Assembly: GCA_018817585.1 (NCBI GenBank)
Contig: JAHITE010000123.1
Location: forward strand, 1,280-65,279
DNA length: 64,000 nucleotides
Source of the DNA: Candidatus Omnitrophota bacterium
GTDB lineage: Bacteria > Omnitrophota > Gorgyraeia > B26-G9
Reading direction: 5' to 3'
The notes under the pieces are model-generated. The model made no database searches and was not told the origin of the DNA. It saw only the letters and a list, made by a program, of their open reading frames with translations. Made by a program: the position numbers and the translations under genes. Of the stretch, positions 242-61,542 are shown in pieces (position 1 is the first letter of the stretch; every line of letters begins with the position of its first letter).

Positions 242-970
242 CTACATAGCAAAACCTTCTCCCAGATATATCTTTTTAGCCTCGGGATTATTGATAAGTT
301 CCTGAGCTGTTCCAGACAAAAGTATTCTGCCTTCAGTCATAATATAACTTCGATCTGTAATGCTTAAAGTTTCCCGTACATTATGATCTGTTAACAATAT
401 GCCTAAACCTTTTTTCTTTAAATCAGCAATGATCTGCTGCACTTCGAATACAGCAATCGGATCAACTCCGCTAAACGGTTCATCCAAAAGAATAAACGAA
501 GGATTGGTAACCAGACAGCGGGTTATCTCCAGGCGGCGGCGTTCTCCGCCAGAAAGTGTATAAGCCTTGCTTTTTGCCAACTGAGTCATTCTCAGCTCTT
601 CCAGCAGCTGTTCCAATCGCTGCTTTCTTTCTTTTTTAGAAATTTTCAGGGTTTCCAGAACAGCCATTATATTTTCTTCAACAGTTAATTTACGAAAAAT
701 CGAAGGATCCTGGGCTAAATAACCAATACCGCAGCGCGCTCGTTTATACATAGCCATATGGGTGATTTCTTTATTATCAAAAAATATTTTGCCTTTATCC
801 GGAGTAATTAGTCCAACAACCATATAAAAAGTAGTTGTCTTGCCCGCGCCATTGGGGCCAAGCAAACCCACGACTTCCGCTCGATGAATATTTATACTTA
901 CCTGATTAACAATCTGTCTTTTTTTGTATGATTTACAGATTAATTCAGTTCTTAAAAGATGCTCTTCCAT
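242..970 (-). CDS. lptB: LPS export ABC transporter ATP-binding protein LptB
   Basis: Walker A GPNGAGKTT, ABC signature LSGGERRRLE, Walker B ILLDEP; about 240 aa; lies just downstream of kdsC as in lpt/kds clusters. Confidence 0.85.
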   Translation of the reverse strand: MEEHLLRTELICKSYKKRQIVNQVSINIHRAEVVGLLGPNGAGKTTTFYMVVGLITPDKGKIFFDNKEITHMAMYKRARCGIGYLAQDPSIFRKLTVEENIMAVLETLKISKKERKQRLEQLLEELRMTQLAKSKAYTLSGGERRRLEITRCLVTNPSFILLDEPFSGVDPIAVFEVQQIIADLKKKGLGILLTDHNVRETLSITDRSYIMTEGRILLSGTAQELINNPEAKKIYLGEGFAM

Positions 971-984
971 GATCTCAATTCCTA

Positions 985-1500
985 TTATGAATACTTTTTA
1001 ACTAAATCATCCCATTTATTCTGAGCTTTGAGAATAAACTCAATTGCTTCTCTGACCGCTCCATATCCCGCGTCTTTAGCGGTAACATAATCAACACAAT
1101 GCTGAATATCATCACAAGCCTGCGGTACTGTCACGGCAAATCCCGCGACATTCAACACCGCCAAATCAAGCAGATCATCACCAATATAACACGCTTGCTC
1201 AGATTTTAGCTTATATTTTTTAAGAATTTTATTAAAAACGATTAATTTCTTATCGGTTTTCTGACAAACCATATTAATCTTTAATTCTTTGGCTCTTCTT
1301 TGCACAGCTTTAGAAGTTTTGCTGGTAATAATCGCTGATTTAATTCCCGCTTTGGACAAAAGAACAAAACCAAATCCGTCCTGCACATGAAATCTCCGAT
1401 AATCATCGTTATAATTACCATAGCCAATAGTGCCGTCGGTAAGAACGCCGTCAACATCGACAATTACGATTTTTATTTTTTTTGCTTTTTTTGTTTTCAT
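985..1500 (-). CDS. kdsC: KDO 8-phosphate phosphatase (HAD family)
   Basis: HAD motif I VDVDGVLTDG; about 170 aa; sits between kdsD and lptB. Confidence 0.85.
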   Translation of the reverse strand: MKTKKAKKIKIVIVDVDGVLTDGTIGYGNYNDDYRRFHVQDGFGFVLLSKAGIKSAIITSKTSKAVQRRAKELKINMVCQKTDKKLIVFNKILKKYKLKSEQACYIGDDLLDLAVLNVAGFAVTVPQACDDIQHCVDYVTAKDAGYGAVREAIEFILKAQNKWDDLVKKYS

Positions 1501-2465
1501 ACTACCCCGGCTTTAAGTAAGTCCTGAACATCCAGCAGCCCCACCGGATGTTTATTTTCATCAACAACCGGGATTTCATCAATTTTCTTTTCTTTAAAAG
1601 TTTTCAGAGCTTCCGCGGCAAGTTTATTTTTAAAAATAGTTGTCGGATTTTTAGTCATCACTTTCGATACAGGACAAGCCAGAATGTCAGATTCGGTTTC
1701 AATATGTCTTCTTAAATCGCCGTCAGTAAAAATCCCCACGACTTTTTTATTTTTATCAATAATTGTCGCGCAGCCTGCCCGCGATTTCGTAATCTGCAAT
1801 AAAACAGTTTTCACTTTATCTGACTGGAGAACAATTGGATTTTGCGCGCCTTTGCGCATCAGATCTTTTACTGTTAACAGTTTTTTGCCCAGACTTCCGC
1901 CAGGATGATAAAAAGCATAATCCTCGATTTTAAAACCTTTTTTTTCCAAAACCGCCACAGCTAAAGCATCGCCCATAGCTAAAGTAGCGGTAGTACTGGC
2001 AGTCGGCGCGAGATTAAACGGACAAGCTTCTTTTTTAACCCCCACATTCAAAACAACATCACTATATTCGGCAAGCACTGATTTCATATTTCCGGTAAAA
2101 CCAATTAACCGCACTCCGATCTTTTTAATAATCGGCAGCAATTTTGTCATTTCCTCGGTTTGGCCGCTATTGGATATGGCAATCACAATATCATCTTTTG
2201 TCACCCTGCCCAGATCGCCATGCACTGCTTCTCCAGGATGCAAAAACAAACTGGGAATCCCCAGGCTGGCCATGGTTGCTGATATTTTAATACCAATCAG
2301 TCCCGGTTTACCCATGCCGGTAATTACAACTCTACCCTTGCAATCAGCAATTAAATTTACAGCCTGATCAAAATTCTTATTAATTCTAGGGATTAAATCA
2401 ATTATCGCTTTTGCTTCAATTCTTAAAACTTGCCGAGCGATTTTTTGAAACATTGTATCAGACAT
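1497..2465 (-). CDS. kdsD: arabinose-5-phosphate isomerase (SIS domain plus tandem CBS)
   Basis: SIS domain (VVITGMGKPGLIGIKISATMASLG) followed by a CBS pair; about 320 aa; overlaps kdsA and kdsC by a few nt, consistent with an operon. Confidence 0.85.
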   Translation of the reverse strand: MSDTMFQKIARQVLRIEAKAIIDLIPRINKNFDQAVNLIADCKGRVVITGMGKPGLIGIKISATMASLGIPSLFLHPGEAVHGDLGRVTKDDIVIAISNSGQTEEMTKLLPIIKKIGVRLIGFTGNMKSVLAEYSDVVLNVGVKKEACPFNLAPTASTTATLAMGDALAVAVLEKKGFKIEDYAFYHPGGSLGKKLLTVKDLMRKGAQNPIVLQSDKVKTVLLQITKSRAGCATIIDKNKKVVGIFTDGDLRRHIETESDILACPVSKVMTKNPTTIFKNKLAAEALKTFKEKKIDEIPVVDENKHPVGLLDVQDLLKAGVV

Positions 2466-3318
2466 TTACAATCTCCCATATTTTTTTCGCCTTTATCAAT
2501 AATTTTTCCAGGTTTTTTACTGCCAGCATATTTGGACCATCACACTTGGCCTTATCCGGATTAACATGCACCTCCAGAAAAAGCGCGTTTGCTCCAGCGG
2601 CTATAGAACTAAGCGATAATGTTTCCACAAATTCCCGCTGCCCCAATGATTTCCCTTTACCAGCTCCTGGCAGCTGCACACTGTGAGTGGCGTCAAAAAC
2701 AACCGGATAACCAAATCTACGCATGATTGGCATTGAACGCATATCACTGACCAGATTATTATAACCAAAAGTATTGCCCCGCTCAGTAATAATAATCTTG
2801 CAATTACCCCTGCTTTTAATTTTATTCGCGGCATTTTCCATGTCTTGAGGCGCCATAAACTGCCCTTTTTTAACATTAACTATTTTTTGCGATTTAGCCG
2901 CGGCCACTAAGATATCAGTCTGGCGGGAAAGTAATGCTGGAATCTGAATAACATCAACCACTTGTTTGGCCTGAGCAACCTCAGCCGCATTATGAATATC
3001 AGTGATCACCGAAACTTTTATTTGTTGTTTGACTTTTTTAAGAATCTCGAGTCCGGATTTTATTCCCGGGCCGCGATAAGATTGCACTGAAGTCCGATTG
3101 GCCTTATCATAACTAGCTTTAAAAATAAAGGGAATCTCCAGTTTTGCGCACATGGTTTTCAATAAATCCGCGTGTTCTAAAGCCATTTTTTCAGATTCAA
3201 TAACACACGGTCCGGCAATAAGAAAAAAAGGGTACTTATTCTTTTTTTTGTTTGATTTAAAATCAAACATCGTTTCTGGAAATTTTTTCATATACTCTGA
3301 GTTTATCCTAAAGTACAA
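2458..3318 (-). CDS. kdsA: 3-deoxy-8-phosphooctulonate synthase
   Basis: FFLIAGPCVIESE at the N-terminus, DAHP/KDO8P synthase family, about 280 aa. The true start is probably an internal Met downstream of the annotated one. Confidence 0.85.
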   Translation of the reverse strand: MYFRINSEYMKKFPETMFDFKSNKKKNKYPFFLIAGPCVIESEKMALEHADLLKTMCAKLEIPFIFKASYDKANRTSVQSYRGPGIKSGLEILKKVKQQIKVSVITDIHNAAEVAQAKQVVDVIQIPALLSRQTDILVAAAKSQKIVNVKKGQFMAPQDMENAANKIKSRGNCKIIITERGNTFGYNNLVSDMRSMPIMRRFGYPVVFDATHSVQLPGAGKGKSLGQREFVETLSLSSIAAGANALFLEVHVNPDKAKCDGPNMLAVKNLEKLLIKAKKIWEIVNV

Positions 3319-3467
3319 AAAATTAAAAATTAAGTAATCTACGGAAAGATATTTCCCTTTGAATTAACGCGGAACAACAGCATTATGTTTATTAAATAAC
3401 TACTATAGTTTACAGCATAAGACTGATTAATTCAAGAAAAAACTGACAAACAAATATAAGAGAAACC

Positions 3468-3508
3468 TCCTGCTTTTAAAAAGCAGGAGGTTTCTCTTAT
3501 TCAATTAT
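3468..3508 (-). terminator. long perfect hairpin downstream of the giant YD-repeat gene (rho-independent terminator)
   Basis: AAGAGAAACCTCCTGCTTTT-AAAA-AGCAGGAGGTTTCTCTT is an approximately 18-bp perfect stem, with T-rich sequence following on the minus strand. Confidence 0.6.
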
Positions 3509-3538: not shown

Positions 3539-5962
3539 TTAACCATTTGATGTTGTTCTAGTCAAGAATCCATTAGGATCATAGTAGAAAATTCCTGACA
3601 AAACACCTTGAGCATTGTAGGAGAAATTCTGTCTTCCACTAACATCAAAGGTAACTGAAGAAGTGATTGCACCTTCATTGTAGTTAACAGATTTCAACAT
3701 AAATCCATTCTTATCATAAGAATACTTAGATTGTAATGCGCCCTGAATAAATGAACCGTCAGCTTGTTTGGTCATTAAATATGATTCTGTCTGTTGTCCA
3801 TACTTGTTAAAGTATGTTCTGGTTGTCTCAGAAGTCCAAGTACCAGAAGGAATCGGGTCACCCTGATCATTATATGCCTTCATCACGGCAAAGCTGGTTG
3901 TATAGTGTAAGAATCCTTGAGCAGAGTAGGTATACTGCTGAACAAGCGCGGAATTTCCTTCTGGCGTATGATTCCATACCTGATTAGGTCTGGAATAAAC
4001 ATCATAAGTAATATGACTGACCAAGCTGCCTTCTCGCCCATAACTATTGGTCTGGTCTATGCCGCCATAGATATTATAGATGTTTTCCTGGTTCTTAAAT
4101 CCGCCGCCTTCAGCAATAGAACCATCAGCATTCACAGAATAATTAGCTACAGCATTCGCATTATAGTCAGCTCCTTGCGGATCAGTACTTTGCGCGTACT
4201 GATAGCCATCTTTAGTACTAACCCCGGTAAACAGCTGATAAGTAGCAGTTGCTTTTGAGTAAACATCAAAGGTTGTATATGAAGTTTGCACACCATTATT
4301 ATAGTTTACTGTCTGAGCTAATTGACCTCTATCATTATAGTAGTATTGGGTTGTTGTTACTCCTTTGAAGTTCTGAGACTCGGTTGGTCTACCGGTATTA
4401 TCATATATCAGGGATCCAGTAACAGCTTTATCTTCACCATAGTTAGTGGTTTTAGCAATAAAACCGTTTGAAGTATAGTAATTTTTCGATGTCTGAACCC
4501 CAACCTGATTATAGGTTGTTTCCGGACGTCCGTATTTATTATATACGCTGGTTCCTGTGTATACAGAAACATCATCAGAGGTATCAGTTGCCGTACCATT
4601 TGTATTCATTGAATACATTACCGCGCCGGTAACAAACCCAGTATTCGATGATCCAGAGAATTCAGATTTCCCATCCCATTCTGTACTATAAACAAATACC
4701 TGAGACACTGATGCGACTCCATTGTAAACAGAATAAGATGATACTGGTCTGCTCTTGCTGTCATATTCAGTATATCCAACTACCTGATAATAACCATGCT
4801 CAGTAACTCCCGCGGCATTAGTTACATCAACTGCCCATTGGCCAGTAGCAGCAGCATCTTCCTGAAACGCGAGATTTGTGGATTTAATCATAAATCCTGC
4901 GTCATTATACTCAAAACTGCTTACTACATAACCTTCAGCATTATTGGTATGAGTTTGTTTTCCATAATCATTATAATAGGTTGTTCCAGTTACCGGACCT
5001 TTAGCTTCAGTGCCTGGATCACCATATGATGTACTGCTTGCCAGAAAACCATTATCATTATACTGAAAATCCTGAACAATCGCGTTTCTTTCATTATAAG
5101 CTGCTACTGGTCTGCCGTATTCATTAAAAACGGTTTTACCTGTATAGCTATTGTTAATCCCATAATTGTTTGTTTGGCTCATGAATCCAGCACGAGAATA
5201 TACAAATGCCGTTGTCTTTTCACCAAGTTCATTAAAGGATTTTTCCTGCTGACCATATTTATTAAATGTTGTGTATCCAGAAACCTCATTATTATCTCCA
5301 TAACTAACCGTCGCTGTTAAAAATCCAGTATTAGCTGCCTGACCAACTAGTCCAAGAGTACTTGTTTCACTGGAAGCATCTGTATTGTATATAAAATCCT
5401 GGACTTTTGTAGCTGTTCCTGATTCAGAAACAGTATAAGAACCAACTGGTCTACCCGCGCCATTATATTCTGTATATCCAGTTAAAACTTCATTATTACC
5501 ATAACTGTTTGCCTGAGTCATAAAGCCTTGCGTATCATACGCGTAATCAGCTACTTTTGCTCCGACTTCATTAGTCTGGTTAACAGCCTTACCATAAGCA
5601 TCATAAGTTGTTATTCCGGTTAAAGTCGGTGCCATTGCTCCATTCTGAAGACTTGGTTCACCATAAGTATTGCTTGATTCCATAGATCCGGTAAACGCGT
5701 TATAATTAAAATTCTGGACTAATGTTCTCCGATTATTATAACTTTCTTCCGGACGGCCAAGATCATTAAAAACAGTACTACCTGTGCTAGCATTATCTAG
5801 TCCGTAATTGTACGCTACATCCATGAAACCTTGACTTGAATAACGATACTTTGTTGTTGTTTCCCCAAATTCATTTTTAGAAATAAGCTGTCTTCCATAT
5901 TTGTCAAATTCTGTGCTTCCGGTAACAACTCCATCTTTTCCATAGTTACTTGTGCTAGTCAA
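3539..5962 (-). pseudogene. C-terminal 807-codon continuation of the giant YD/Rhs-like repeat protein; same frame as 6038..10315, separated only by one TAA
   Basis: The roughly 40-aa repeat (YxYNxxGFLxxTxxYGxxxxVTGxTxFDxYGRPxxxYN) runs straight across the stop. No ATG and no RBS: the ORF track begins it on a TTG. Frame phase matches (5962 and 10315 are both 1 mod 3). Confidence 0.6.
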
Positions 5963-6037
5963 GAATCCCTGTTGATAGACATATGTCTGGATAAGCGCTC
6001 CTTGACCTTCCCCTTGAGTATCCCAATAACACTGATA

Positions 6038-9000
6038 TTACTCTATCGGACGAGAATTATCATTAAACAAGGTATATCCGGTTACAGCATAAAAACCGCG
6101 CTGACTATCGCCGTTTGTCGAATCAGAAAGATCATTCAGATTATTATGAACAGCATTAACTGCCACTGAATCAGCTGCATAGCCTATCTCAGCAGTTGAA
6201 TCGGTTGTAGTATCTGCGACAAATGCCAATGATGTTGTTTTGGTCATAAATCCCTGAGAGTCGTATTCATAAGCAGATACAGTAATCCCCATATCATTTT
6301 CGCCTCTTAGCGCTTTACCATAACCATCGTATATTGTCTTTCCAGTCTTAGCCTGATTTTCCCCATAACTGGTACTTGCCTCTAAGAATCCGTATTGATT
6401 ATACTCAAATGTCTGAGTTAATCCCTTTAAACCAGTACCGCTTGAGGCCATATTAAAAGCTTCAGTCGGCCTGCCCATTTTATTAAACACGGTTTTTCCA
6501 GTATACGCGCCCTGCAGCCCATAGTTATTTGTCTGTTTAAGGAAACCTTGATTTGAATACACATATTTGGAGACAACAGCGTTGTCTTCATTATAAGTGA
6601 CGTTTTGTCTGCCATAATCATCAAATATTGTTTTTCCATTATCCACACCATTACGACCAAAGTTATTAGTCTGAACCATGAACCCATCTTTGTATACATA
6701 TTCCTGAACTTTTGCCGACTGCTGTCCGTTAACGCCGTCATTATAAACAGAATATGTAGCAACTGGTTTGGACTTTTCATTAAATTCCGTGTACCCAGTC
6801 AGAATAGTATTTACTGTAGACACTCCATCAACAGTAGTAACCATAATGTTACCATTTTCGTCTGTTTGCGCGCCATAGGACTCAGACTTTGTCATAAAAC
6901 CACGTTCATTATAGGCATATTGCTGAATTGTTACACCTTCCGCATTATCTACAGAAGTAGCTTTGCCATATTTATCATATTCAGTTTTACCTGTATATGT
7001 TGGCATATATTTAGCAGTTGCTGAAGTTGTTGATTTAGCAAACGCAATTAAATCTGTTCTATCAACATCACCATCTGAATCATAATCAAAACTAGCAACA
7101 TAATTAGCATCACCGGTAACTGATTTATAAGCAGCGCTAAAAGCAGTTGAACCGCTAAAAGAATCCTCAAACAAAGCCTGATCAGTCGCGTCAACAGCTC
7201 CGTCATCATTAAAATCAAAATCAGTAGAATAAGTTCTATCTCCTCTGACTGATCCAAGGGCCTCACTAAATTTATCCAATTTAGCAAGATCTACTACTGT
7301 TGCCTCGCCCCAAGTCATACTTGATTCAAGAAAACCATCATCGCCATAAACAAATGTTTGAGTTACCCCTTTTAAGTATGGCTGCCAAGCTGGATTATCC
7401 AGATCAGCTGAAGTTAATCCTTCGGAAAGAGCTGAAACAAGATCATCAGGAAGAGCAACTGCTTTAGAACCATAATTATTAAACGCGGCAACTGGTCTTG
7501 AAAAATTATCAAAAACAGTAAACCCGGTAACTCTTTTATTCGCTCCATAAGAAACTGTACTCGAAAGGAATCCGCCTGCAGAATAGTTATATTTTTGAAC
7601 TACTTGATCTGTTTCCCCAAGCGCTTCATCTCCTTTATTATAAGATTCGTTTTGTCGTCCATAGCTATCAAAAGTAGTATATCCAGTAACCGCCTGTTGA
7701 TCTTTATTCTCGCCACTAGTAGCAATTACGCCATCTCCATTTGAATCATAAAAATCACCAAAGGTTGTTGTTTTCTGAACAAAATTTGAATAATTTGTTG
7801 ATGTAACATTCACATAAATTGCTCTGCCATTGGCATCCACTTCACCAGTAGCTTGTTTTTCTGTTTTTTCATAAGAATATGAGAATCCCTGGGTTTTTGC
7901 GGTCTGAATACCCAAACTTGCCCCATTATCATCAAATCCCTCATACATTGAGTAAGAAGCCATTGGTTTGCCATCTCCGCCAAAAACAGTATAGCCTGTT
8001 ACTGTAGGAAGATTAACTGTTGGCAGATCCAGATCCCCAACAGGACGATCCGCGGAATTAGAAAGCTGCGCAACAGACCAATCAGTTACGTTTTCTACTG
8101 CTGTTCCCGCTGCATTCCAAGCCTGCGCTCCGCCAAATTCAGAAACCTGAACTTTATAAGCAGAAATAGCCGCACTGGAGTTTCCGTCTTGTTCTAAAGA
8201 CTGACCAAGCATATGATACGCAGTACCAACACTGTTGATTAAATATTCATTACCGCCTTTTGCTCCGTCACTAAACCACATAATTATTGTTAACGCGACC
8301 TTTTTAGTTAATTCAGCATCTCCTGAATTCCAAGCATTCCACATTGCGGACACAAAAGCACTGTCACTGAGATTTCCACCAGTAGCAGCAATAGCTTCTC
8401 CTGTATATGCCGGATCCCACAATGCTAAAATTGCTTCCTGATCAGCCATGGTTGAGGCAATAGATTCATTGACCCCTTCTGCCGCACTCATGGTAAAGCT
8501 TTGAACAAGCATCCCGCATTCATCATATACATATTTTTGCACTAAGCTTCCAGTGTGATTATAAACATCTGTTGGCTTACCCTTATCATTATATAATGTG
8601 GAACCGGTTGTAACTCCGTTTTCTCCGAGATTCTTTGTTTCGGTTAAGAATCCGTCCGCATTATAAATAAACAATTGGCTTCCTGAGCCTTGAGCATTGC
8701 TAGCAGTAGTTGGTCGGCTTAAACGATCAAATGTTGTCGTACCAGTAGTTTTACCACCAAAACCATAACTAACTGTTTGCGCAAGAAAACCATTGCTGTT
8801 ATATTTATACTCCTGTTGTTTTTCCATCACAGGATTACTGTCCGCATCCACAACAATATTACCCAAATCATCACGCACCAAAGCATAAACAGCTTCTGGT
8901 CTGCCTTTTTTGTCATATTCAGTTTTAGAAGTTGTAATGTACTGAAAATTACCACTTGCGTCTAAAACTGCCTCGCCATAAGCTACATCATTTTCATCAG

Positions 9001-10315
9001 TATTTCTAATAATACCCAGCGAATATGTGCTCTCTAATGTCCCGTTTGCTTTATACGCGTATTCCTGAATTTTTACTTTATTCCCGCCATCACCTAACTG
9101 CCAAACCTCATCCGGACGGCCTTGCCCGTCAAAAAGCGTCATCGAAGTTCTTGCCTGAGAGCCCAAAGAATTGATCGCGCCCAAAGAAAATGTCTGCTGT
9201 AAAAAGCCATGCTCATTATATTGATATTCCTGAACTTTGACTCCAACATGATTATATGTTCCGGAAACCTGTCCATACTCATTATAATCGGTCCAGCCAG
9301 TAACAATACCTTCTTCTCCTAAATTAGTAATTGAAGTGATATTATTCGCGGCGTCATAATTATAAGCACCGATTGGCACCAAATGATCAACTACTGTTTC
9401 CCCGGTTAAAGGATCAATAACTTCATTACCATCAGCATCAACTTGATTAACAACATCAAAAATAGTGGTATAATATCCATTAACCACTTCCGTGATTTGA
9501 TTTGAAATCACATCAGTAACTGAAACCAAGATCTCATTAGAATCATACTGAAATGTTTTAGTAATTGTACCCTCAAGATTTGTTACATAGGAAGGACGAA
9601 TACCGTCTTGTTCAAAATGAGTTGTATTCCCGTTCTGATCAATAAATGTTTCCAATATTCCTTTTGAATTATAAGTATAGTCCCCAACCTGCACAGCAGT
9701 TCCGTCCATATTTGTATACATAATATAATCAGGACGCTGATTAGAGTCGTATATTGTTTTATTTCCCCATTGATCAGTAGAGCTTACCATTATTTCAACG
9801 CCATTTTTATCCAAACCATATTCATACGTAATTAAACCTTGTGCTGACGTGGATAATAACTGGCCATATTGGCTATATTGTCTTGTTTCAACAAGCGCGC
9901 CATTTTCATTATAAAGCTTAACAGTCGCGCCATCAAGTTCATACTTATAAGTTAAACTTTCACCGGTTTCGTCATTTTTAACTTTAATAGTTGCTCCGTT
10001 TAAAGTATAACTAACCTCAGTATAACCTTCCGCGGTTTTACTTACCTGAGCCGAAGCCCCTTCTCCCGAGTAAATATAAAGATCACCATTGGAAGTGGTA
10101 ATTACCTTTGGGGGAGGCGCTACTTGCTGATTCAGATCAGCTGATTCACTTTGGTCTGCAACCTGACCGCCAAATACCCCTTGAATTACTTCCTGGGACA
10201 TTAGCATGTCTTCCATTGCAGTTATATCAAAAGCAAACGCGAGATTCATGGTTGTCACATTAACAATAAAACAAACAAGCACTAAATAACTATAAAAACG
10301 AATATATTTGTTCAT
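6038..10315 (-). CDS. giant secreted YD/Rhs-like repeat protein, N-terminal 1425 codons (signal peptide, YD-like repeats, non-repeat insert, dockerin-like Ca-binding module)
   Basis: N-terminal signal peptide MNKYIRFYSYLVLVCFIVNVTTMNLAFA; dozens of degenerate YD-type repeats; AGGAGA RBS ahead of the ATG; ends at TAA 6038-6040 in mid-repeat. Confidence 0.75.
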   Translation of the reverse strand: MNKYIRFYSYLVLVCFIVNVTTMNLAFAFDITAMEDMLMSQEVIQGVFGGQVADQSESADLNQQVAPPPKVITTSNGDLYIYSGEGASAQVSKTAEGYTEVSYTLNGATIKVKNDETGESLTYKYELDGATVKLYNENGALVETRQYSQYGQLLSTSAQGLITYEYGLDKNGVEIMVSSTDQWGNKTIYDSNQRPDYIMYTNMDGTAVQVGDYTYNSKGILETFIDQNGNTTHFEQDGIRPSYVTNLEGTITKTFQYDSNEILVSVTDVISNQITEVVNGYYTTIFDVVNQVDADGNEVIDPLTGETVVDHLVPIGAYNYDAANNITSITNLGEEGIVTGWTDYNEYGQVSGTYNHVGVKVQEYQYNEHGFLQQTFSLGAINSLGSQARTSMTLFDGQGRPDEVWQLGDGGNKVKIQEYAYKANGTLESTYSLGIIRNTDENDVAYGEAVLDASGNFQYITTSKTEYDKKGRPEAVYALVRDDLGNIVVDADSNPVMEKQQEYKYNSNGFLAQTVSYGFGGKTTGTTTFDRLSRPTTASNAQGSGSQLFIYNADGFLTETKNLGENGVTTGSTLYNDKGKPTDVYNHTGSLVQKYVYDECGMLVQSFTMSAAEGVNESIASTMADQEAILALWDPAYTGEAIAATGGNLSDSAFVSAMWNAWNSGDAELTKKVALTIIMWFSDGAKGGNEYLINSVGTAYHMLGQSLEQDGNSSAAISAYKVQVSEFGGAQAWNAAGTAVENVTDWSVAQLSNSADRPVGDLDLPTVNLPTVTGYTVFGGDGKPMASYSMYEGFDDNGASLGIQTAKTQGFSYSYEKTEKQATGEVDANGRAIYVNVTSTNYSNFVQKTTTFGDFYDSNGDGVIATSGENKDQQAVTGYTTFDSYGRQNESYNKGDEALGETDQVVQKYNYSAGGFLSSTVSYGANKRVTGFTVFDNFSRPVAAFNNYGSKAVALPDDLVSALSEGLTSADLDNPAWQPYLKGVTQTFVYGDDGFLESSMTWGEATVVDLAKLDKFSEALGSVRGDRTYSTDFDFNDDGAVDATDQALFEDSFSGSTAFSAAYKSVTGDANYVASFDYDSDGDVDRTDLIAFAKSTTSATAKYMPTYTGKTEYDKYGKATSVDNAEGVTIQQYAYNERGFMTKSESYGAQTDENGNIMVTTVDGVSTVNTILTGYTEFNEKSKPVATYSVYNDGVNGQQSAKVQEYVYKDGFMVQTNNFGRNGVDNGKTIFDDYGRQNVTYNEDNAVVSKYVYSNQGFLKQTNNYGLQGAYTGKTVFNKMGRPTEAFNMASSGTGLKGLTQTFEYNQYGFLEASTSYGENQAKTGKTIYDGYGKALRGENDMGITVSAYEYDSQGFMTKTTSLAFVADTTTDSTAEIGYAADSVAVNAVHNNLNDLSDSTNGDSQRGFYAVTGYTLFNDNSRPIE
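7045..7225 (-). other. dockerin-like / EF-hand pair Ca-binding module inside the YD-repeat protein
   Basis: Two 12-residue loops, DFNDDGAVDATD and DYDSDGDVDRTD, each followed by a hydrophobic helix (QALF / LIAF): the classic dockerin duplicated-loop pattern. Confidence 0.5.
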
Positions 10316-11058
10316 GACTGCTCTCCTTTCATAATTTTAAAATTATAAGTTGAAATAAAAAAGTGATAATCAGAATTTAATATTATAGTAATATGATTAA
10401 ATAATAATATCGTAAAATTTTTAGCCATCTAACAAACTCCCTCCTTTCCCTTTTATTTTTATAGACAAAATAATAGCCAAACTGCTTAATTTTCGTCAGC
10501 CCGGCTGTCATAGCTTATAGTCGCGTTGTCGGTGCGCTCGGCGATCATTGCTTCAGCTTTAGACCCGTAGCTTTGCCCCAGCTTTACTAGCCAGGTCCCG
10601 CCGCATTTTGGCGGGAGTCCCCATCTTTCAATGAGTTTGCCTTTTCGGATTACTCCAAAAAACTAAACTTATGAAAAGTCTTTAATTGTAGACATAATAA
10701 TTAATATTTATAAAAGACTAATCATTTAGCATCTCAGAGCTTAATTTGCGGATACAAATAGACTTAGATTTAGAGGACTGTTTTTTTCGAGGATAATAAA
10801 TTCGTATTTGGATAAAAATAGGGTTACAAGTATAAATATTTTATTTTGTTCCCTCTACGAAACAATCCAGTCCCTCTTGACCATTGCCATACACAAATTG
10901 GCGCTCTTTTACTTCTAATTAAATATACCATGAATTCAAAACTTTTGCAAATTTAATAAAATTTATTAAAACTACTATTATTAGTACATTACTAATTATA
11001 ATTAAAAACTGTTTTAATAACTTTTTAAGCATTATTTTAGTTTAAAAAACACTGACAA

Positions 11059-12273
11059 TTAAACTTGCTCCTGCCTGATAAAACAATCCATTAACTCATA
11101 CCCATTAGCAAAAATAAACTGGCTTTTTTTCGCTTCAAATTCATTATAAAAGCCAATATCATCTTTTGCCACACCGCTGCCATACATTAATAAACACACT
11201 GGATCTGAAGTATGAGTTTTTAAGGCAACCGGCGTAGGATGATCCGGCAGAATTAAAAGCCGATAATCTTTTACATCTTTAAGCCCAGCCAAAACAGTTC
11301 CCAACACCAGCTTATCAAAACTCTCGATTGCCGAAATTTTTGCTCTGGCATCGCCATTATGTCCAGCTTCATCAGGCGCTTCCACATGAATAAACACAAA
11401 ATCGTCTTTTTCCAGCGCTTTTAGCGCATACCTGGCTTTTGCTTCATAATCAGTATCATAATATCCGGTTGCGCCAGGAACATTGATTGCTTCTAAACCA
11501 GCAGCACAGCCAATACCTTTAATCAAATCAACCGCGGAAATAACCGCTCCGGACAAACCATATTTTTCCTTAAATGAAGGCAAAATAACTTTTTTACCCT
11601 GGCCCCATAACCAGATCATATTAGCCGGGCTTTCATTTAAATCCCGCCGCACTTGATTAATTTCCTGCAAATCCAGAATATCTCTAGAGCGCAGCATAAT
11701 ATCATTAATAACTCCGGCTTTTTTCTTATCCAGCATATATTTTTCAATTTTCTGGCCCATAATGTCATGCGGCGGATAACACTTCACTTTACAAAGTTCA
11801 TGATTTAAATCTTTAACAATCATTAAATGCCGATAACTAACCCCTGGATAAAATACTATACCTTGTTTTTTAAAATTCTTATTCAACACTTTTATAAGAA
11901 CCTGAGCTTCCTTAGTCGTAATATGACCAGCACTATAATCAACCAAATAACCATTGCCTTCAGTTATAAAATTACAGCGGAAAGCCACTTCATCTTCTTT
12001 AAGCTCTATGCCCAAATGCGTTGCCTCCAGCGGCGCTCTTCCGGAAAAATACTTATTGGGATCATAGCCGAAAATTGCCAGATTAGCCACATCACTGCCC
12101 GGAATCATTCCTTCAGGAACAAAAGAAGCCTGTCCGATTTTACCATCTTTGGCCAGCATATCCATATTTGGCGTACGGGCAACTTCCAAGGGAGTTCGCC
12201 CTGCCAGATCATCCAAAGGATAATCCGCCATGCCATCCGGGACCATAACTATGTATTTCATTTTTTTCGACAT
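11059..12273 (-). CDS. archaeal-type cofactor-independent phosphoglycerate mutase family (ApgM-like); in this context a candidate non-orthologous homoserine kinase
   Basis: N-terminus MKYIVMVPDGMADYP...RTPNMD is typical of the ApgM metalloenzyme family; about 400 aa; last gene of the hom-thrC operon, and no thrB is present. Confidence 0.7.
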   Translation of the reverse strand: MSKKMKYIVMVPDGMADYPLDDLAGRTPLEVARTPNMDMLAKDGKIGQASFVPEGMIPGSDVANLAIFGYDPNKYFSGRAPLEATHLGIELKEDEVAFRCNFITEGNGYLVDYSAGHITTKEAQVLIKVLNKNFKKQGIVFYPGVSYRHLMIVKDLNHELCKVKCYPPHDIMGQKIEKYMLDKKKAGVINDIMLRSRDILDLQEINQVRRDLNESPANMIWLWGQGKKVILPSFKEKYGLSGAVISAVDLIKGIGCAAGLEAINVPGATGYYDTDYEAKARYALKALEKDDFVFIHVEAPDEAGHNGDARAKISAIESFDKLVLGTVLAGLKDVKDYRLLILPDHPTPVALKTHTSDPVCLLMYGSGVAKDDIGFYNEFEAKKSQFIFANGYELMDCFIRQEQV

Positions 12274-12295
12274 TTTAATTTAACCTGTTTTATTT

Positions 12296-13360
12296 TTAGT
12301 CTAGTTTAATTTTTTCTAAAATAGCCTCAACCACCGGCGAAACATACTCCGGCTCTTTTATGCTGGAAATCGCTTGGTCCGGATCTTTTAAACCATGTCC
12401 GGTTAAAACACAGACAATATTTACTTTCTTTTTATTTTTAAAATATCCGGCTTTAGCTAATTTTATAATTCCGGCAACTGAGGCTGCTGATGCCGGCTCG
12501 ACAAACACACCTTCAGCTTGAGCCAGGAGTTTATACGCTTGTAAAATTTCCTCATCAGTTACGGCATTAATCAAACCCTTTGACTCATCACGCGCGGCTT
12601 CCGCGCTTTTCCAGCTGGCTGGATTGCCGATTTTAATTGCCGTGGCAATGGTTTTAGGATCGCTAACAATAGCACCGTTAACAATCGGAGCCGAACCTGC
12701 TGCCTGAAAACCAAGCATTACCGGCAGGTCAACAATTTTATTAGATTGTTTATACTGATTAAACCCCTTCCAATAAGCCGTAATATTACCCGCGTTACCC
12801 ACAGGAATAGCCAAATAATCCGGCGCTTTACCTAAGGAATCACAGACTTCAAAAGCAGCGGTTTTTTGACCTTCAATCCGAAATGGGTTTAAAGAATTTA
12901 CCAATGTTACTGGATAATTATCAGTGATTTCTCTGACCAGTTCTAAAGCTAGATCAAAATTACCATCAATTGCTAAAACTTCAGCTCCGTGAATCAAGGC
13001 CTGCGCTAATTTACCCAGAGCAATCGCGCCATGGGGAATCAGAACAATGCATTTTAAACCCGCGCGCGCGCTGTAAGCTGCTGCCGAAGCAGAGGTATTA
13101 CCAGTGGAAGCACACATAACTGCTTTTGCCCCAGCTTGTTTAGCTTTGGAAATAGCCATGGTCATCCCTCTATCCTTAAATGAACCAGTAGGATTAAGTC
13201 CCTCATATTTTAAAAATACATTGGCATTTTCATTGATTAAAGCACTGATTTTTGGCGCGAAAATTAAAGGAGTATTTCCTTCGTTTAAAGAAACTACCGG
13301 AGTATTGGCATCAACTGGTAATAATTCCCGATACTCCTCAATCAAACCTTTCCAACCCAT
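12296..13360 (-). CDS. thrC: threonine synthase
   Basis: PLP-lysine motif [11 protein letters not shown]-terminus [12 protein letters not shown], about 350 aa. The start is probably [10 protein letters not shown] (13360) rather than the upstream ORF-track start that overlaps hom. Confidence 0.85.
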
Positions 13361-13364
13361 GTGT

Positions 13365-14660
13365 TTAAATCCTTTCCGTACGAATTGCCACACTTTTTCT
13401 TTTTATAACCGGCAAATTATTAATCTCAAGCAAAGCCTGCGCAATGTCTTTTTCCTTGGCATCATGCGTCATCATTACCACATGAACTGATTGCTCTTGT
13501 CTTCTGCCTTTTTGAATAACACTGTAAATACTAATATTGTTTTTACCTAAGATAGCCGCGATCTGCGATAAAACCGCTGGTTCATCCAAAGCGGAAAATC
13601 TAAAATAATAACGGGTTTCAATATTATCTATTAAATTAACTTTTAACTTTTCAGGATCAATATTAACCAGACAATTATCTTGCCTTAATGAACCCTGCAT
13701 TTTTTGAGCAATAGAAATAATGTCCGAAACAACCGCGCTGGCTGTTGGTAATTGGCCGGCTCCCGGACCATGCAGCATTTGTTCACCGACAAAATCACTG
13801 CGTAAAAGTATCGCGTTGGAAACGCCGTCAACATTAGCCAATATATGCTTTTTCGGTAAAAGCGTGGGATGAACTCTTAATTGCACTGAACCTTCTGATT
13901 TTTTAGCAATTGCCAATAACTTTATACAATAGCCCATTTCCGCGGCATAACGAATATCACATAAATCTATATTTTCAATACCCTCAACATAAACATCTTT
14001 AAAATCAACTTCATGCCCAAAACTCAGTCTGGCGAGAATTGCGATTTTATGCGCCGAATCACCACCATTAATATCCAGACTGGGATCACTTTCCGCGTAT
14101 CCTTTTTTTTGCGCTTCTCTTAAAGCGATTTTAAAATCACAGCCTTTTTGCGCCATCTGGGAAAGAATATAATTGCTCGTTCCATTAATGATTCCATAAA
14201 CAGTTTCTACGCGATCAGCCACCAGCCCTTCTCTTAAAGTGCGGATAATGGGAATCGCCCCGCCAACACTGGCTTCATAATAAACATCCACCCCATTTGC
14301 TTTTGCCGCTTCAAATATTTCCGCGCCTTCTTCAGCCAGCAAAGCTTTATTGGCCGTAACCACAAATTTTTTATTTTTAAGCGCTTGGAGGATAAACTCT
14401 TTTGCCGGATGAATTCCGCCGATCAGCTCAACAACTATCTGAATATTTTGATCATTAAGTATTTTCTGAACATCCGATGTAAGAATATTCCGGTCAATAT
14501 CAAGCCCGCGAGTTGATTCAATATCTAAATCACATATCCAGGCAAGACTGATATTTAATCCCAGTTTTTTTTCCAGGGTTTTAGCCTTCTGCTGGAGAAC
14601 TTTAACCACTCCGCTGCCGATTGTGCCAAAACCAATTAAACCAACATTAATTTTGTTCAT
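13365..14660 (-). CDS. hom: homoserine dehydrogenase with C-terminal ACT domain
   Basis: NAD-binding [13 protein letters not shown], homoserine dehydrogenase catalytic core, C-terminal ACT regulatory domain; about 430 aa. Confidence 0.85.
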
Positions 14661-15079
14661 TTTTTCTCTTTGTCTATTTTTGCCGACAAATGAATTTTAT
14701 TATCTTCACTGGCGCAGTTTTTAATTGTCTGTTCAAGAATCAACAAATCCTTATCATCAACTTTTATAAATTTAATCCCAATATCAAATAATAATTTTTT
14801 ATTTTTTTCCTGTTGCACATAAACAACTTCTGCCAAAACCTCTACCAAATGAGCAACCTTAGGTAAACGTAAAGTCACATGGAGAATTGTTCCCATCGGG
14901 AAATTATAATCAGTGGTAAAACAAATACCGCCTAAACTCACATTACGGGTAAGCGTCATATCAGTTTTATTAATTTCGCCAGGATAAACATAATAACTAA
15001 CTACGAAGTTAGTGTTTATCCTGATAAATTGGCGTCTTTCCTGAGGAGTATAGTAACCACGAGAATCAGATGTTTGCAT
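14657..15079 (-). CDS. PilZ-domain protein (c-di-GMP effector), first gene of the threonine operon
   Basis: PilZ motifs RRQFIR (RxxxR) and NVSLGG (D/NxSxGG); 4-nt overlap with hom. Confidence 0.6.
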   Translation of the reverse strand: MQTSDSRGYYTPQERRQFIRINTNFVVSYYVYPGEINKTDMTLTRNVSLGGICFTTDYNFPMGTILHVTLRLPKVAHLVEVLAEVVYVQQEKNKKLLFDIGIKFIKVDDKDLLILEQTIKNCASEDNKIHLSAKIDKEKK

Positions 15080-25204: not shown

Positions 25205-26179
25205 TTAGAATTTACAGGAAATGCCGAATTGGTGCAGATAATCCTCATTGCCTACCGCAGGATCCTGCCAATAAACAAACGTATAGTCAAAGTAATAACA
25301 TACAGGATGCGTTACAAAAAATTCCGCATACTGCCAGCCCAATCCCAAAGAGTAATATTTACTGGAATCCATGCTTGAATTAGGATTATGCGCTCCCAGC
25401 CTCAGAGAGAAATCGTCATTAAAATAATGTTCCATGCCCAAGCGTACATTTTGACTGTAATCAGATCCTCGATCCTGCGTATTACCAGTTAAATCATAAA
25501 TATCACAAGTTAATACAGTAGACTCATTCATATAATAAGCCAAACCCGGACGCCAGACTCTGATCAATCGACTATTTACCCCATGAATCGTAAAAGTCGG
25601 CTCATTAATATTTTCCACCAATAAACCCAAAGCCATTTTTTCCGACATATACCAGAGAAATCCCGCGTTTAAACTTATTGCTGTATCGCTGGAACTAATC
25701 CCGGGAATTTCTGATTTAAAATTAAAATAATTTAAAGAAACTCCCCAAGCCATATTTTCACTGGAAAAGAATTGACGGCCATAAGCAATACCTGGCTGCA
25801 TCAAAATTGTTTTACTGCGAGTTATTTCGTTTTCATAAGTACTGTTTTGATAATAGACCCCAACTGATCCGCTTTTAGAATCGGTCTGCCCCAGCTGCTT
25901 AGTATATACAATATAATCATCACTAATAAAATCACCAGTAATATAATCATTTCTCGCATTGATTGTTGCCGAAGCGCTAAATTCCTGGTCTTTTTGCCAG
26001 GCAAGACCAGCCGGATTCCAAGTACTGGCATTAGCATCATCAGCCAATGCGACAAATGCTCCGCCCATGGAAACCGGTCTGGCTCCGCCTTGAGCTGCCC
26101 AAACATTTTGATTACAAATAACCATTAACCCCATTATTAATAAAATAATAAAAAATCTTTTGCTTAAATATTTGCGCAT
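25205..26179 (-). CDS. outer-membrane beta-barrel protein, FadL/PorV-like
   Basis: Signal peptide; N-terminal motif RPVSMGGAFVALADDANASTWNPAGLA as in FadL/PorV-type barrels; alternating amphipathic strands; C-terminal Phe (..ISCKF). Stop/start abuts the peptidase gene. Confidence 0.55.
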   Translation of the reverse strand: MRKYLSKRFFIILLIMGLMVICNQNVWAAQGGARPVSMGGAFVALADDANASTWNPAGLAWQKDQEFSASATINARNDYITGDFISDDYIVYTKQLGQTDSKSGSVGVYYQNSTYENEITRSKTILMQPGIAYGRQFFSSENMAWGVSLNYFNFKSEIPGISSSDTAISLNAGFLWYMSEKMALGLLVENINEPTFTIHGVNSRLIRVWRPGLAYYMNESTVLTCDIYDLTGNTQDRGSDYSQNVRLGMEHYFNDDFSLRLGAHNPNSSMDSSKYYSLGLGWQYAEFFVTHPVCYYFDYTFVYWQDPAVGNEDYLHQFGISCKF

Positions 26180-28713
26180 TATAAATCACCTTTATTAAGC
26201 AGATCAGCTAATTTAACCAAAGAACTAAGACCATAGCGTACTGCTTTTTTAGCCGCGTCATTAGCTCTGATCATATCTGCCAGTTTTGGCCCAATTATAT
26301 AATAAACAGCCACAAATTCCCTGCCTCGATAATCAGCCATTAATTGTTTATCTCTAAATTTCCGCAGTAATACCACTTCCGGAGCTTGTTGGTCTCCATA
26401 GCAGGCTGTTGCCACAAAACAACTACTACTGCTGCTCGATGAATCAGCACTGCCTGAGCCTCCTAATACAGTTGTGCTGGCCCGGTTATTAGCAGCCACC
26501 GCTCCTTCATAAGTAGTCCCATTATAGCCAAAAGCAACATAATGATAAGTTGTATCAGCCTTAACATCAGTATGATTATAAGTTTCGGTTGTTCCTGGCG
26601 TAGCAGCCTTAGAAACCAGCAATGTACCGTCAGTCTCACTGGTAGGATAGGTTCCGTCCGTGCGATAGCGAATCATTACCTGAGTTAAATCCGCCCGGAT
26701 TGAATTTTTCCAGGATAAAGTCACCCAGCTGCTGTTGGCAAAAGCAATATTATTTGCTGTAAAATTTGTTGGTGATAAAAAAGCCGCGCTTAAAGGAGTT
26801 TGCGGATCGCCTAATAAATTAGTCGCGAAATAAGCCCAGCGCTCAGCATCATATGAGGCAACCAAGCCAATTGTTTCCTGCTTTGCCAATTGTAATGCTT
26901 TGCCGATATTTACATTTCCATCACGCACCACTGAGTCCCAGAATTCGCGATGAATCCGCTGCGATGCGCCATTAGTCCCTCCGGGATTATACCAGCCATA
27001 CCTTGAGTTGCCGATAAACGAAAATGCCCCATTAGCTTCTGTAGTAAAATGCTCTAAAATACAATCTGAAGCACCATAAATCCCGTCACTCTGCCGATTA
27101 TCAAAAGCTCCGGAATAACAGCCCTGAGTATAACCAAAAAAATACTCAGTGTTTGTTAAGCCATCAACATCAGCATTCGACATTGTCTTAGCAACTACAG
27201 TATTAGTAGCATGCCCCAAATGATTAATGACGTGAACACCCGCGTTAATAATTGCCACTAAACTGCTCGTAATCCAAGTAGCATCCTGATCATATAGATT
27301 ATTAAAACTAAAATAACCAGATTCTGACATACCGCTGGTGGAATAACCATTAGCGCTGGATCCATTACGAATTTCTTCCAAATATGGTTTTGCGTAAGTA
27401 TCTGTAACCAATTCACCCGCCATGCAAGCCCGGGTAAGATAATCCGCGTTAGAATTTTCATAAGCAATTGTTTTTTTTACAAAATTAGCCAACTCAGCCG
27501 TGGAATCAACCGGAGCCCGGCCAATATAGACCTCAGCAGTTAAATCAATACTCCCGCCGCCAGGCCCATCACCGATCTCTCCATATATCCCATTATTATT
27601 AAAATCAAAATCCCCATCAAAACAAGCATAATACATATCACAGGGAATATTATTATCAGGATCTAAATGTGCCGGGTAATCATTATTTACCTTGCCATAA
27701 AATCCTCTATAGGGAATTATCGGCGCTGCTTCGGTTTCTCCAGTAGCAATGCCACCGCCGTCAGCATCACCGACTAAAAGCACATATTGAGTTAAATTAT
27801 CTGTACAATAAGCAATAATAAAATCGCGCAGATTTCCCGCGTTATCCGATTTAGCAGTATAATTCGCATAAACCCAAGTTGTGTCAAATATTTCAGTAGA
27901 TATTCCCTTAGATTCTTTATGAGTTTTAAGATCATTCAGATTATTTACACCAACATAGTTTTTAAATCCTAAGCTCGTAATAATTAAATAATCGACCGTA
28001 GCTAAAGGAGCTGCCAATGAGGTTATAGCATTTTGACTATACGTACTAATATCTTCCGGATTATCTACAAAATCATTTACAGCCTTTTGATCAGCAGCAA
28101 TACCGCGATAAAACTTATTATTCGTACTCAGCGTCGCCAGCTCATCGGATAAGACAATATTAAGATTAAGATTATCATAATAAGCTAATTTACCAGTTGC
28201 CGGAATATATTCCACGGGAAAAAGATTAATAATCAGGATTTTATAACCACGCATTTCCTGCGTGGAAACAACTTTGTAGACAGATTCAGGATAAGCAGTA
28301 TTACGGCTATAGATTTCAGGATTAGGCAAAGTGGGATTAATCGGTCCCGCATAATCTGTTCGCGCTGGGGCTTGTGCCGGCTCAACAAAATAAGTACCGT
28401 AAACATATTTTTTACTGGTCCAGCCTAGAGTTACATTGCTGACTTTTTTCCCTTGAGGAATCAAATATTTTATGGTTTTAATTGGCAGCAAAGGTTCACC
28501 TGGTGCGGCAAAATTTTCCAAACCTTTAATTTTAACCCGATGATAATTATTTATTTTAGTAACTTCTACTGAATCAAGCTGTGTGCTAATCAGATTATTT
28601 TTAATTTTTAAAGAAAAACTCTGTTCTTCGCCAGCAGAATAAGCATTAAAATTAAATAAAAAAACAAAAACGCAAACACAGAAAAATATCCAGGTTGTTT
28701 TACTGCTGTACAT
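26179..28713 (-). CDS. secreted C25 (gingipain-like, clan CD) cysteine peptidase with FN3-like domain, poly-Ser linker and a conserved Cys-containing C-terminal domain
   Basis: Signal peptide; His-Gly/Cys dyad context INHLGHATNT ... GYTQGCYSGAFDN; FN3-like WxxLxW...Y..Y segment; SGSADSSSSSSS linker; C-terminal CFVATACYG...LLRKFRD...YY..GP..A domain. Confidence 0.6.
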   Translation of the reverse strand: MYSSKTTWIFFCVCVFVFLFNFNAYSAGEEQSFSLKIKNNLISTQLDSVEVTKINNYHRVKIKGLENFAAPGEPLLPIKTIKYLIPQGKKVSNVTLGWTSKKYVYGTYFVEPAQAPARTDYAGPINPTLPNPEIYSRNTAYPESVYKVVSTQEMRGYKILIINLFPVEYIPATGKLAYYDNLNLNIVLSDELATLSTNNKFYRGIAADQKAVNDFVDNPEDISTYSQNAITSLAAPLATVDYLIITSLGFKNYVGVNNLNDLKTHKESKGISTEIFDTTWVYANYTAKSDNAGNLRDFIIAYCTDNLTQYVLLVGDADGGGIATGETEAAPIIPYRGFYGKVNNDYPAHLDPDNNIPCDMYYACFDGDFDFNNNGIYGEIGDGPGGGSIDLTAEVYIGRAPVDSTAELANFVKKTIAYENSNADYLTRACMAGELVTDTYAKPYLEEIRNGSSANGYSTSGMSESGYFSFNNLYDQDATWITSSLVAIINAGVHVINHLGHATNTVVAKTMSNADVDGLTNTEYFFGYTQGCYSGAFDNRQSDGIYGASDCILEHFTTEANGAFSFIGNSRYGWYNPGGTNGASQRIHREFWDSVVRDGNVNIGKALQLAKQETIGLVASYDAERWAYFATNLLGDPQTPLSAAFLSPTNFTANNIAFANSSWVTLSWKNSIRADLTQVMIRYRTDGTYPTSETDGTLLVSKAATPGTTETYNHTDVKADTTYHYVAFGYNGTTYEGAVAANNRASTTVLGGSGSADSSSSSSSCFVATACYGDQQAPEVVLLRKFRDKQLMADYRGREFVAVYYIIGPKLADMIRANDAAKKAVRYGLSSLVKLADLLNKGDL

Positions 28714-61071: not shown

Positions 61072-61542
61072 TTAAACTGGGTTTGCCTCTTTATTCCCCG
61101 GATAATAATTTTTTATCCACTTCTGAATTTTAGGATCATCAGGCTTATGGGAAAAATATTTCTTAGATACAAGTTTTTTAAATTCTTCGTAAGGATCTTT
61201 TTTATCTCCGGCTTTGCGTAAATGTTTTTCGTCATTCAAGTATAGATATAAAATAAGCTTTGGCTGGCTAGAAAAACAAAAAAATAATCTATACCGCTGC
61301 AGGCCCTGCTTATAACGACGATATTTTTTAAGCTCATCGCGCAGGCGATATTCTTCCCGGTTTGGATCCTGAGGAATAATTTCTTGATCAGCTTTACGGA
61401 TACGATAAGCAAGTTTTACAATCTCATGTTGCTGAAATTCTTCATTACCAAGTTTGCTGCGCAATTCTATTACTTGTTCTTTTAATTTTGCTATCCGTTG
61501 AAAGTAAAAATCATGGTATTTTAAAAGATAACTACTCTTCAT
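61072..61542 (-). CDS. yhaV: YhaV-family type II toxin (ribonuclease)
   Basis: C-terminal segment RYRLFFCFSSQPKLILYLYLNDEKHLRKAGDKKDPYEEFKKL aligns with E. coli YhaV GRYRLFFRYSEKEKVIILGWMNDENTLRTYGKKTDAYTVFSKML. Start set at an internal Met so the protein is about 156 aa. Confidence 0.75.
   Translation of the reverse strand: MKSSYLLKYHDFYFQRIAKLKEQVIELRSKLGNEEFQQHEIVKLAYRIRKADQEIIPQDPNREEYRLRDELKKYRRYKQGLQRYRLFFCFSSQPKLILYLYLNDEKHLRKAGDKKDPYEEFKKLVSKKYFSHKPDDPKIQKWIKNYYPGNKEANPV

Follow-up and report, generated by a model that had tools for sequence, protein, structure and literature searches.

A giant reading frame interrupted by one in-frame TAA

The window analyzed here is the whole 64,000-nt stretch of contig JAHITE010000123.1, from an Omnitrophota metagenome-assembled genome (MAG). 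Positions 3539-10315 of its minus strand form a single reading frame of 2,258 codons for a secreted-type repeat protein (hereafter the giant gene and giant protein), and this frame is interrupted by one TAA at 6038-6040. We consider the interruption to be probably a real, recent, unprogrammed and lineage-specific nonsense allele in a single conserved gene. All window features given with coordinates below lie on the same minus strand.

Translation of 3539-10315 yielded 2,259 codons including the terminal TAA (3539-3541), with a single internal stop, the premature TAA at codon 1426 (6038..6040, context TAA-T), where relatives carry a sense codon. ORF (open reading frame) 6038..10315, with 1425 codons and an ATG start, is in the same frame as ORF 3539..5962. 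The residues read ...YTLFNDNSRPIE before the stop and YQCYWDTQGEGQGALIQTYVYQQGFLTSTSNYG... after it, the longer left flank being ...GYTLFNDNSRPIE, and a peptide spanning the junction would, if read through, be ...SRPIE[X]YQCYWDTQGEGQGALIQTYVYQQGFLTSTSNYGK. The coordinates, the shared frame, the single TAA and the junction residues given in a preliminary description of this DNA, made from the sequence alone, were all confirmed by this translation.

The upstream part (6041..10315, 1425 codons), which is the portion that would be translated from this allele, corresponds to NCBI protein MBU1088106.1 (KKD05_11400). The downstream part (3542..6037, 832 codons, followed by the terminal TAA) is annotated as an 807-aa protein from TTG 5962, MBU1088105.1 (KKD05_11395). 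Both entries are identical to the respective ORF products and belong to the record of a 'Candidatus Omnitrophica bacterium' MAG. Over the downstream stretch the gene frame (832 codons) had 0 stops, whereas the two alternative frames had 34 and 115; the open downstream frame is not a chance arrangement.

Upstream of the giant gene, a Shine-Dalgarno-like sequence, AAAGGAGAG (10321..10329), lies 5 nt ahead of ATG 10315, and orthologs keep a Shine-Dalgarno at the same position (AAAGGAGC, GAGGAGG and similar). The downstream piece contains no in-frame ATG, and its first in-frame start is TTG 5962, 25 codons past the stop and preceded only by cAGGGAttc at 3-nt spacing, with a convincing Shine-Dalgarno absent. 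This agrees with the preliminary description, which had seen neither an ATG nor a ribosome-binding site there. Re-initiation at TTG 5962 to give a functional C-terminal protein was ruled out, since there is no Shine-Dalgarno and the product would be without a signal peptide. The sole terminator-like site on this strand within the unit is an intrinsic terminator at 3456..3500 (20-bp stem, GAGAAACCTCCTGCTTTT..., and a T-rich tail), located after the second piece about 40 nt past the final stop. This very strong terminator stands between the giant gene and the downstream kdsA.

Relatives carry one uninterrupted gene with a sense codon at the site

Relatives were obtained by a protein search (3 relatives) and by junction-alignment scans of GTDB genomes and JGI metagenomes (10 more loci). 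The scanned loci were all from Omnitrophota, except for one MAG whose record says Planctomycetia, and they included the duplicate pairs L003/L012 and L007/L010, so that 8 loci were counted. The giant gene was one uninterrupted ORF of 2,166-2,306 aa at the same genomic position in 8/8 Omnitrophota loci, of which two are partial at a contig end (L005, with the last 1,287 aa only, and L008, without the 5′ end). The entire 2,258-aa frame of the window was collinear with the single-ORF orthologs, the upstream 1425 codons matching their residues 1 to ~1430. A HMMER search of 1.84 billion representative proteins with the C-terminal third returned 18 related clusters at E ≤ 1e-3, and the downstream piece aligned with the C-terminal third of the full-length relatives (2,115-2,284 aa). 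These clusters include a 2,981-aa relative (P0011) and a distant 2,260-aa relative with 30% identity (P0017).

A sense codon occupied the TAA column in all 10 relatives covering the site, encoding Ser in seven (TCT in L002, L003 and L006, TCG in L001 and L005, TCA in L004, and TCC in L011), Thr in two (ACT in L008 and ACC in L009) and Ala in one (GCT in L007). Two of these relatives are ~80% identical to the window. In one of them, L004 (~80% amino-acid identity), TCA TAT CAG stands in place of the window's TAA TAT CAG, and a single C>A transversion suffices to explain the stop. The L001 locus (ENA ERZ25039527 contig_79060, 48.7 kb) is syntenic with the window (hom-thrC-apgM, giant gene, kdsA-kdsD-kdsC-lptB), and its product was collinear with the 2,258-aa frame, the identity being 49% on either side of the stop. 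In L002, a 1.7-kb JGI contig with 55% identity, the frame reads through the TAA site uninterrupted. Compared at the sequence level, then, 3539-10315 is one gene carrying a nonsense codon, as the preliminary description had proposed, with orthologs that are single ORFs rather than pairs of separate genes.

All retrieved Omnitrophota loci with both flanks had the giant gene between genes for 3-deoxy-D-manno-octulosonate (KDO) and lipopolysaccharide (kdsA, kdsD, kdsC, lptB) and apgM-thrC-hom. The corresponding blocks in the window are at 242-3318 (kdsA side, with genes of outer-membrane biogenesis) and 11059-14660 (apgM side).

Two relatives carry lesions of their own. In the L001 ortholog, one base is missing from AACAAACCGG (L001 ~9980-10000), which splits the product into 1,568 + 678 aa. 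This frameshift falls ~135 codons after the column of the window TAA and is hence a different lesion in a different place; the loss may be a homopolymer error of long-read assembly. The L002 ORF leaves the repeat ~200 codons after the TAA column, and its tail is non-repeat, with a predicted local distance difference test score (pLDDT) below 35 (L002 1490-1669). After the tail comes the start of an unrelated gene (MKKISADSAILIV...), and neither the tail nor this gene start matched any locus. The L002 end is either the end of a chimeric contig or a real truncation.

The giant protein is a YD-repeat protein distinct from Rhs toxins

The repeat unit measured ~45-46 aa and follows the pattern YxYxxxGF[LM]..[ST]xNYG.....TGxTxF[DN]xxG[RK][PQ]xx[ST][YF]N, with a fixed double hairpin. 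In the RPxx[ST]Y motif, the TAA occupies the [ST] slot. As had been described, the repeat runs on past the stop, although the unit is longer than the ~40 aa first given. The Pfam family RHS_repeat (PF05593) matched the downstream piece of the window with 28.9 bits (cut-off 22), 4 of 10 orthologous C-terminal thirds (best E = 2.1e-13) and the full-length L003 protein (55.6 bits); the family was not matched when the upstream 1425 aa were scanned by themselves.

An AlphaFold2 model of the downstream 832 aa (pLDDT 76.8, predicted template-modelling score 0.47) consisted of continuous 6-7-residue strands and 5-residue turns, all as beta-hairpins. When it was compared against the PDB with Foldseek, the 45 best matches were all Rhs effectors of type VI secretion systems (T6SS), teneurins, Tc-BC or SGS1 (E to 5e-30, probability 1.00), with low global agreement (TM-scores 0.12-0.24, root-mean-square deviation ~30 Å) for models that derive from shallow alignments and whose global shape is unreliable. 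Searched with a sequence profile of the C-terminal third, the PDB sequences yielded no relative. The models support a local hairpin fold of the YD/Rhs/teneurin type. The Tyr/Gly-rich hairpins, with a GRP/GRQ turn in the giant protein, are shared with Rhs T6SS effectors (7q97 RhsA, 8qja), Tc BC (4o9x, 4igl) and teneurins (6fb3), but the match to their shell is local, and TM-scores of 0.12-0.24 speak neither for nor against a closed cocoon.

The modeled hairpins also indicate where the stop falls. In the AlphaFold2 model of an ortholog fragment spanning the site (P0002), the matching residue, Ser269, lies in a strand (266-271) of an unbroken hairpin array, and residues 261-270 have a mean pLDDT of 87. 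According to this model, the stop cuts mid-repeat, within a beta-strand, and not at a domain boundary.

The features that define Rhs toxins were sought in the window protein and its surroundings. NCBIfam scans of both pieces found 0 families and no RHS core domain, and a regular-expression search for the autoproteolysis motif PxxxxDPxGL found no DPxG[LWIV] and no PxxxxDP. The C-terminus (...FYYDPNGFLTRTTSNG) lies inside a repeat and has no toxin tip, and orthologs end alike. No immunity gene, VgrG, PAAR or TcA is present among the neighbours, which are kdsA/kdsD/kdsC/lptB on one flank and apgM/thrC/hom with a PilZ gene on the opposite flank. Rhs and Tc-BC systems thus have a core, PxxxxDPxGL cleavage, a C-terminal toxin and immunity or delivery genes that the giant protein is without. 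Of the initial label 'YD/Rhs-like', the repeat and the local fold hold, while the tests for an Rhs toxin were negative; the giant protein is a divergent YD-repeat scaffold-like protein and not a member of the Rhs toxin family.

Two further features lie in the upstream part. The N-terminus, MNKYIRFYSYLVLVCFIVNVTTMNLAFA up to a boundary before FD (10226..10315), shows basic residues, a hydrophobic core and an AxA motif (AFA), and, as read from the sequence, it looks like a Sec signal peptide whose pattern is kept in orthologs. A dockerin-like module spans residues 1034-1089 (7049..7216), in which two DxDxDGxxDxxD-like loops are visible as the Ca-loop-like motifs DFDFNDDGAVDATD and DYDSDGDVDRTD. 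Pfam Dockerin_1 (PF00404) scored 18.9 bits (E = 0.0018) in the window and 18.3 bits in L003, below the cut-off of 22.9, whereas the segment at the homologous position of the L009 ortholog reached 28.5 bits. For the term 'dockerin-like' used before, then, the cut-off is passed in one ortholog only and not in the window protein itself.

TAA is an ordinary terminator in the window

Of the 56 ORFs of the window, 37 are closed by TAA, and TAAT is the most frequent stop context when the following base is counted in (19/56). Because 37/56 ORFs end in this codon, TAA is an ordinary and probably efficient terminator here, and an alternative genetic code or a reassignment of TAA was ruled out on the same count. 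In E. coli, TAA-T is the most efficient termination signal.

The preliminary description had named four possible causes for the stop, of which recent pseudogenisation and a sequencing or assembly variant stay plausible, and phase variation and programmed readthrough found no support. Programmed readthrough, or leaky termination giving truncated and full-length products, could draw on a downstream frame that is fully open and conserved as well as the upstream part, and on a truncated part that retains the signal-peptide-like N-terminus and the dockerin-like module. It is, however, hard to reconcile with the relatives, since TAA is present in 0/10 of those covering the site, including the two that are ~80% identical, and the stop is therefore not a conserved recoding site. 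The context, TAA-T, is also the commonest terminator context in the window. The 160 nt around and after the stop folded no better than shuffles (z = -0.16), giving no stable downstream RNA structure, and no suppressor tRNA was found within the window, where the tRNAs are tRNA-Pro(GGG) and tRNA-Arg(CCT) only. No natural system that decodes TAA, in the manner of those for selenocysteine or pyrrolysine, is known. We regard readthrough as very improbable, and the dual truncated/full-length product suggested earlier found no support.

A phase-variable on/off site, which had also been put forward, is opposed by the sequence at and near the TAA (CGTCCGATAGAGTAATATCAGTG), which is free of homopolymers and short tandem repeats; no search was made for invertible elements. 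We give next to no credence to this possibility or to its companion, that the region holds two genuinely separate genes. NCBI does annotate two proteins, MBU1088106.1 and MBU1088105.1, and the relative L001 is likewise called as two ORFs, but the L001 split lies elsewhere and is a frameshift. A separate downstream gene would have neither an ATG, a Shine-Dalgarno nor a signal peptide, the stop falls in a predicted beta-strand of a repeat, and 8 loci have one ORF. At the level of sequence, two separate genes are already contradicted by the ortholog architecture.

The sequence after the stop shows no sign of decay

The 1413 columns upstream and 783 columns downstream of the stop were compared in a relative-rate test on three taxa, namely the window, L003 and L004. 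Window-specific amino-acid changes amounted to 76/1413 (5.4%) upstream and 35/783 (4.5%) downstream, a down/up ratio of 0.83. The L003-specific changes were 107 (7.6%) and 71 (9.1%), with a ratio of 1.2, and the L004-specific changes were 128 (9.1%) and 89 (11.4%), with a ratio of 1.25. Window-specific nonsynonymous/synonymous codon changes were 49/123 upstream versus 19/44 downstream. Compared with L003 and L004, the window thus showed no loosening of constraint past the stop. Of all possible single substitutions in the giant gene, about 5% make a stop codon; 0 further stops are present, so that a long unselected period is unlikely to have passed. Downstream decay, which the preliminary description had named among the signs that, taken together, would count against its proposal, was not seen, there being neither stops nor relaxed constraint. 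From these sequence comparisons, the mutation would be either very recent or not present in most cells.

The second possibility leads to an alternative in which the TAA arose as an error of base calling or of the consensus, or comes from a minority strain whose variant ended up in the contig; the cells would then produce the intact protein of 2,258 aa. The source is indeed a metagenome-assembled genome, and 832 intact downstream codons without relaxed constraint are as expected if most cells are without the stop. Another assembly, L001, also has a single lesion (the 1-nt loss in AACAAACCGG) that is homopolymer-error-like, and this suggests that long genes do collect such artefacts. On the other side, the 1,425-aa and 807-aa products occur on two contigs of differing size, the NCBI MAG contig (67,741 nt) and a JGI/IMG contig (75,332 nt), the remaining ORFs of the window showed no second broken gene, and substitution errors are rare in short-read consensus. 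Other overlapping ORF pairs in the window were considered as broken genes and ruled out, as they are separate intact genes. We judge an artefact or minority variant to be possible, though rather unlikely.

Several points weigh against a real allele. The NCBI and JGI/IMG records, which carry the same two ORF products, may stem from the same reads; a consensus or strain-mixture artefact of metagenome assembly would look just like a real allele in the contig; and zero downstream decay suits an artefact equally well. No intact same-species allele was found in databases that are visibly incomplete for the giant-gene family. When JGI metagenome contigs were scanned for exact matches to the junction pattern, with the stop codon set to NNN, there were 0 matches and no conspecific allele. 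A protein search by word index, with the non-repeat region from the centre of the protein as query, gave 0 matches, so that even the window's own protein was missed.

Set against these points are one gene with a sense codon in all relatives, TAA as a normal stop, no recoding signals and no downstream decay, and we continue to think it probable that the TAA is a real and recent nonsense allele, truly present in cells and not only in the consensus. A Ser codon, most simply TCA, would have become TAA by one C>A change within the repeat. Transcription would run from a leader with a cyclic di-GMP (c-di-GMP)-I riboswitch, described below, to the single terminator after the second piece. Ribosomes would stop at the efficient TAA-T and release a 1,425-aa product without the last 37% of the repeat array, which could be exported; the preliminary description had likewise expected the N-terminal part to be made and exported. 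The remaining 2.5 kb would be left untranslated and, on general bacterial biology, exposed to Rho-dependent polarity.

Together with the L001 frameshift and the L002 end, the window stop makes three defects in the same third of a 6.8-kb repetitive gene. Given eight intact loci, these are most simply noise. The window case resembles ordinary nonsense pseudogenes and split-gene MAG annotations, with a stop from a point change, two 'hypothetical proteins' and intact orthologs, and we see no material difference from them.

A c-di-GMP-I riboswitch aptamer is conserved upstream of the giant gene

A c-di-GMP-I (GEMM-I) riboswitch aptamer was predicted at 10492..10651 on the minus strand (Rfam RF01051, 42.2 bits versus a gathering score of 35). 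It lies in the 5′ leader, ~175 nt ahead of the ATG, and two of its stems are enlarged, by insertions of 49 and 37 nt. The preliminary description makes no mention of this feature. RF01051 was also found 170-260 nt ahead of the ortholog in 6/6 loci with upstream DNA, at 42-63 bits (L001 4993-5083, L003 6213-6396, L006 6282-6404, L007 6996-7118, L009 6288-6412 and L011 6546-6666), and thus in 7/7 with the window. A gene for a PilZ-domain protein, of a c-di-GMP receptor family (14657-15079, minus strand; Pfam E = 3.5e-12), adjoins hom ~4 kb upstream of the giant-gene ATG, with an L001 counterpart at 700-1113.

Riboswitches of the c-di-GMP-I class control surface and adhesion genes in Vibrio, Clostridioides, Geobacter and Bdellovibrio. 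The giant gene resembles such adhesion genes in having an RF01051 aptamer in the leader of a gene for a secreted or surface-type protein, and differs from them in its host, Omnitrophota, and in its cargo, a 2,250-aa YD-repeat protein. Because of this analogy with c-di-GMP-I-controlled genes in other phyla, the likeliest role of the giant protein would be that of a c-di-GMP-gated cell-surface or contact protein. Omnitrophota are suspected of an epibiotic or predatory lifestyle. A more far-reaching proposal is that this is an Omnitrophota-specific, riboswitch-gated contact or attachment protein, and that the three lesions in its C-terminal third arose because selection repeatedly favoured shortening that part or switching it off, for example to escape a phage or host by which it is recognised; we consider this proposal improbable.

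Long proteins of Omnitrophota, with predicted antiparallel beta-helices, have been described and compared with RHS repeat proteins (West-Roberts et al. 2023, bioRxiv 10.1101/2023.11.21.568195). They come from the same phylum, but reach tens of thousands of aa versus ~2,250 here. Neither of two papers on Omnitrophota long proteins mentions riboswitches or c-di-GMP. Within the searchable collection, no paper connects this riboswitch with Omnitrophota or with YD-repeat proteins, and a literature search for Omnitrophota and c-di-GMP found nothing relevant.

Other genes in the window

Three further regions of the minus strand were noted. A 1,115-aa ORF at 37552-40899 had no Pfam match at E ≤ 1e-3, and an 844-aa protein encoded at 26179-28713 contains Peptidase_C25 (gingipain-type) and Propeptide_C25 domains. 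A gene for a YhaV-type toxin (61072-61834; Pfam E = 4.3e-27) overlaps on its upstream side with an ORF of 100 aa, and the two are probably a YhaV/PrlF-like toxin-antitoxin pair.

Significance

The interruption of the giant gene is a real but ordinary finding. The stop itself tells nothing new about decoding, and the two database entries, MBU1088106.1 and MBU1088105.1, are halves of one gene and call for annotation as one interrupted gene. What is new here is the gene family together with its conserved riboswitch. The family is rare (18 clusters in 1.84 billion proteins) and combines a length of ~2,250 aa, YD repeats, a dockerin-like insert and a fixed genomic position with a riboswitch upstream. 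It shows that YD-repeat arrays exist without the toxin and immunity machinery that accompanies them in Rhs systems, and, with its predicted aptamer, it offers a concrete, testable connection from c-di-GMP signalling to a large secreted protein in a phylum without a cultured model.

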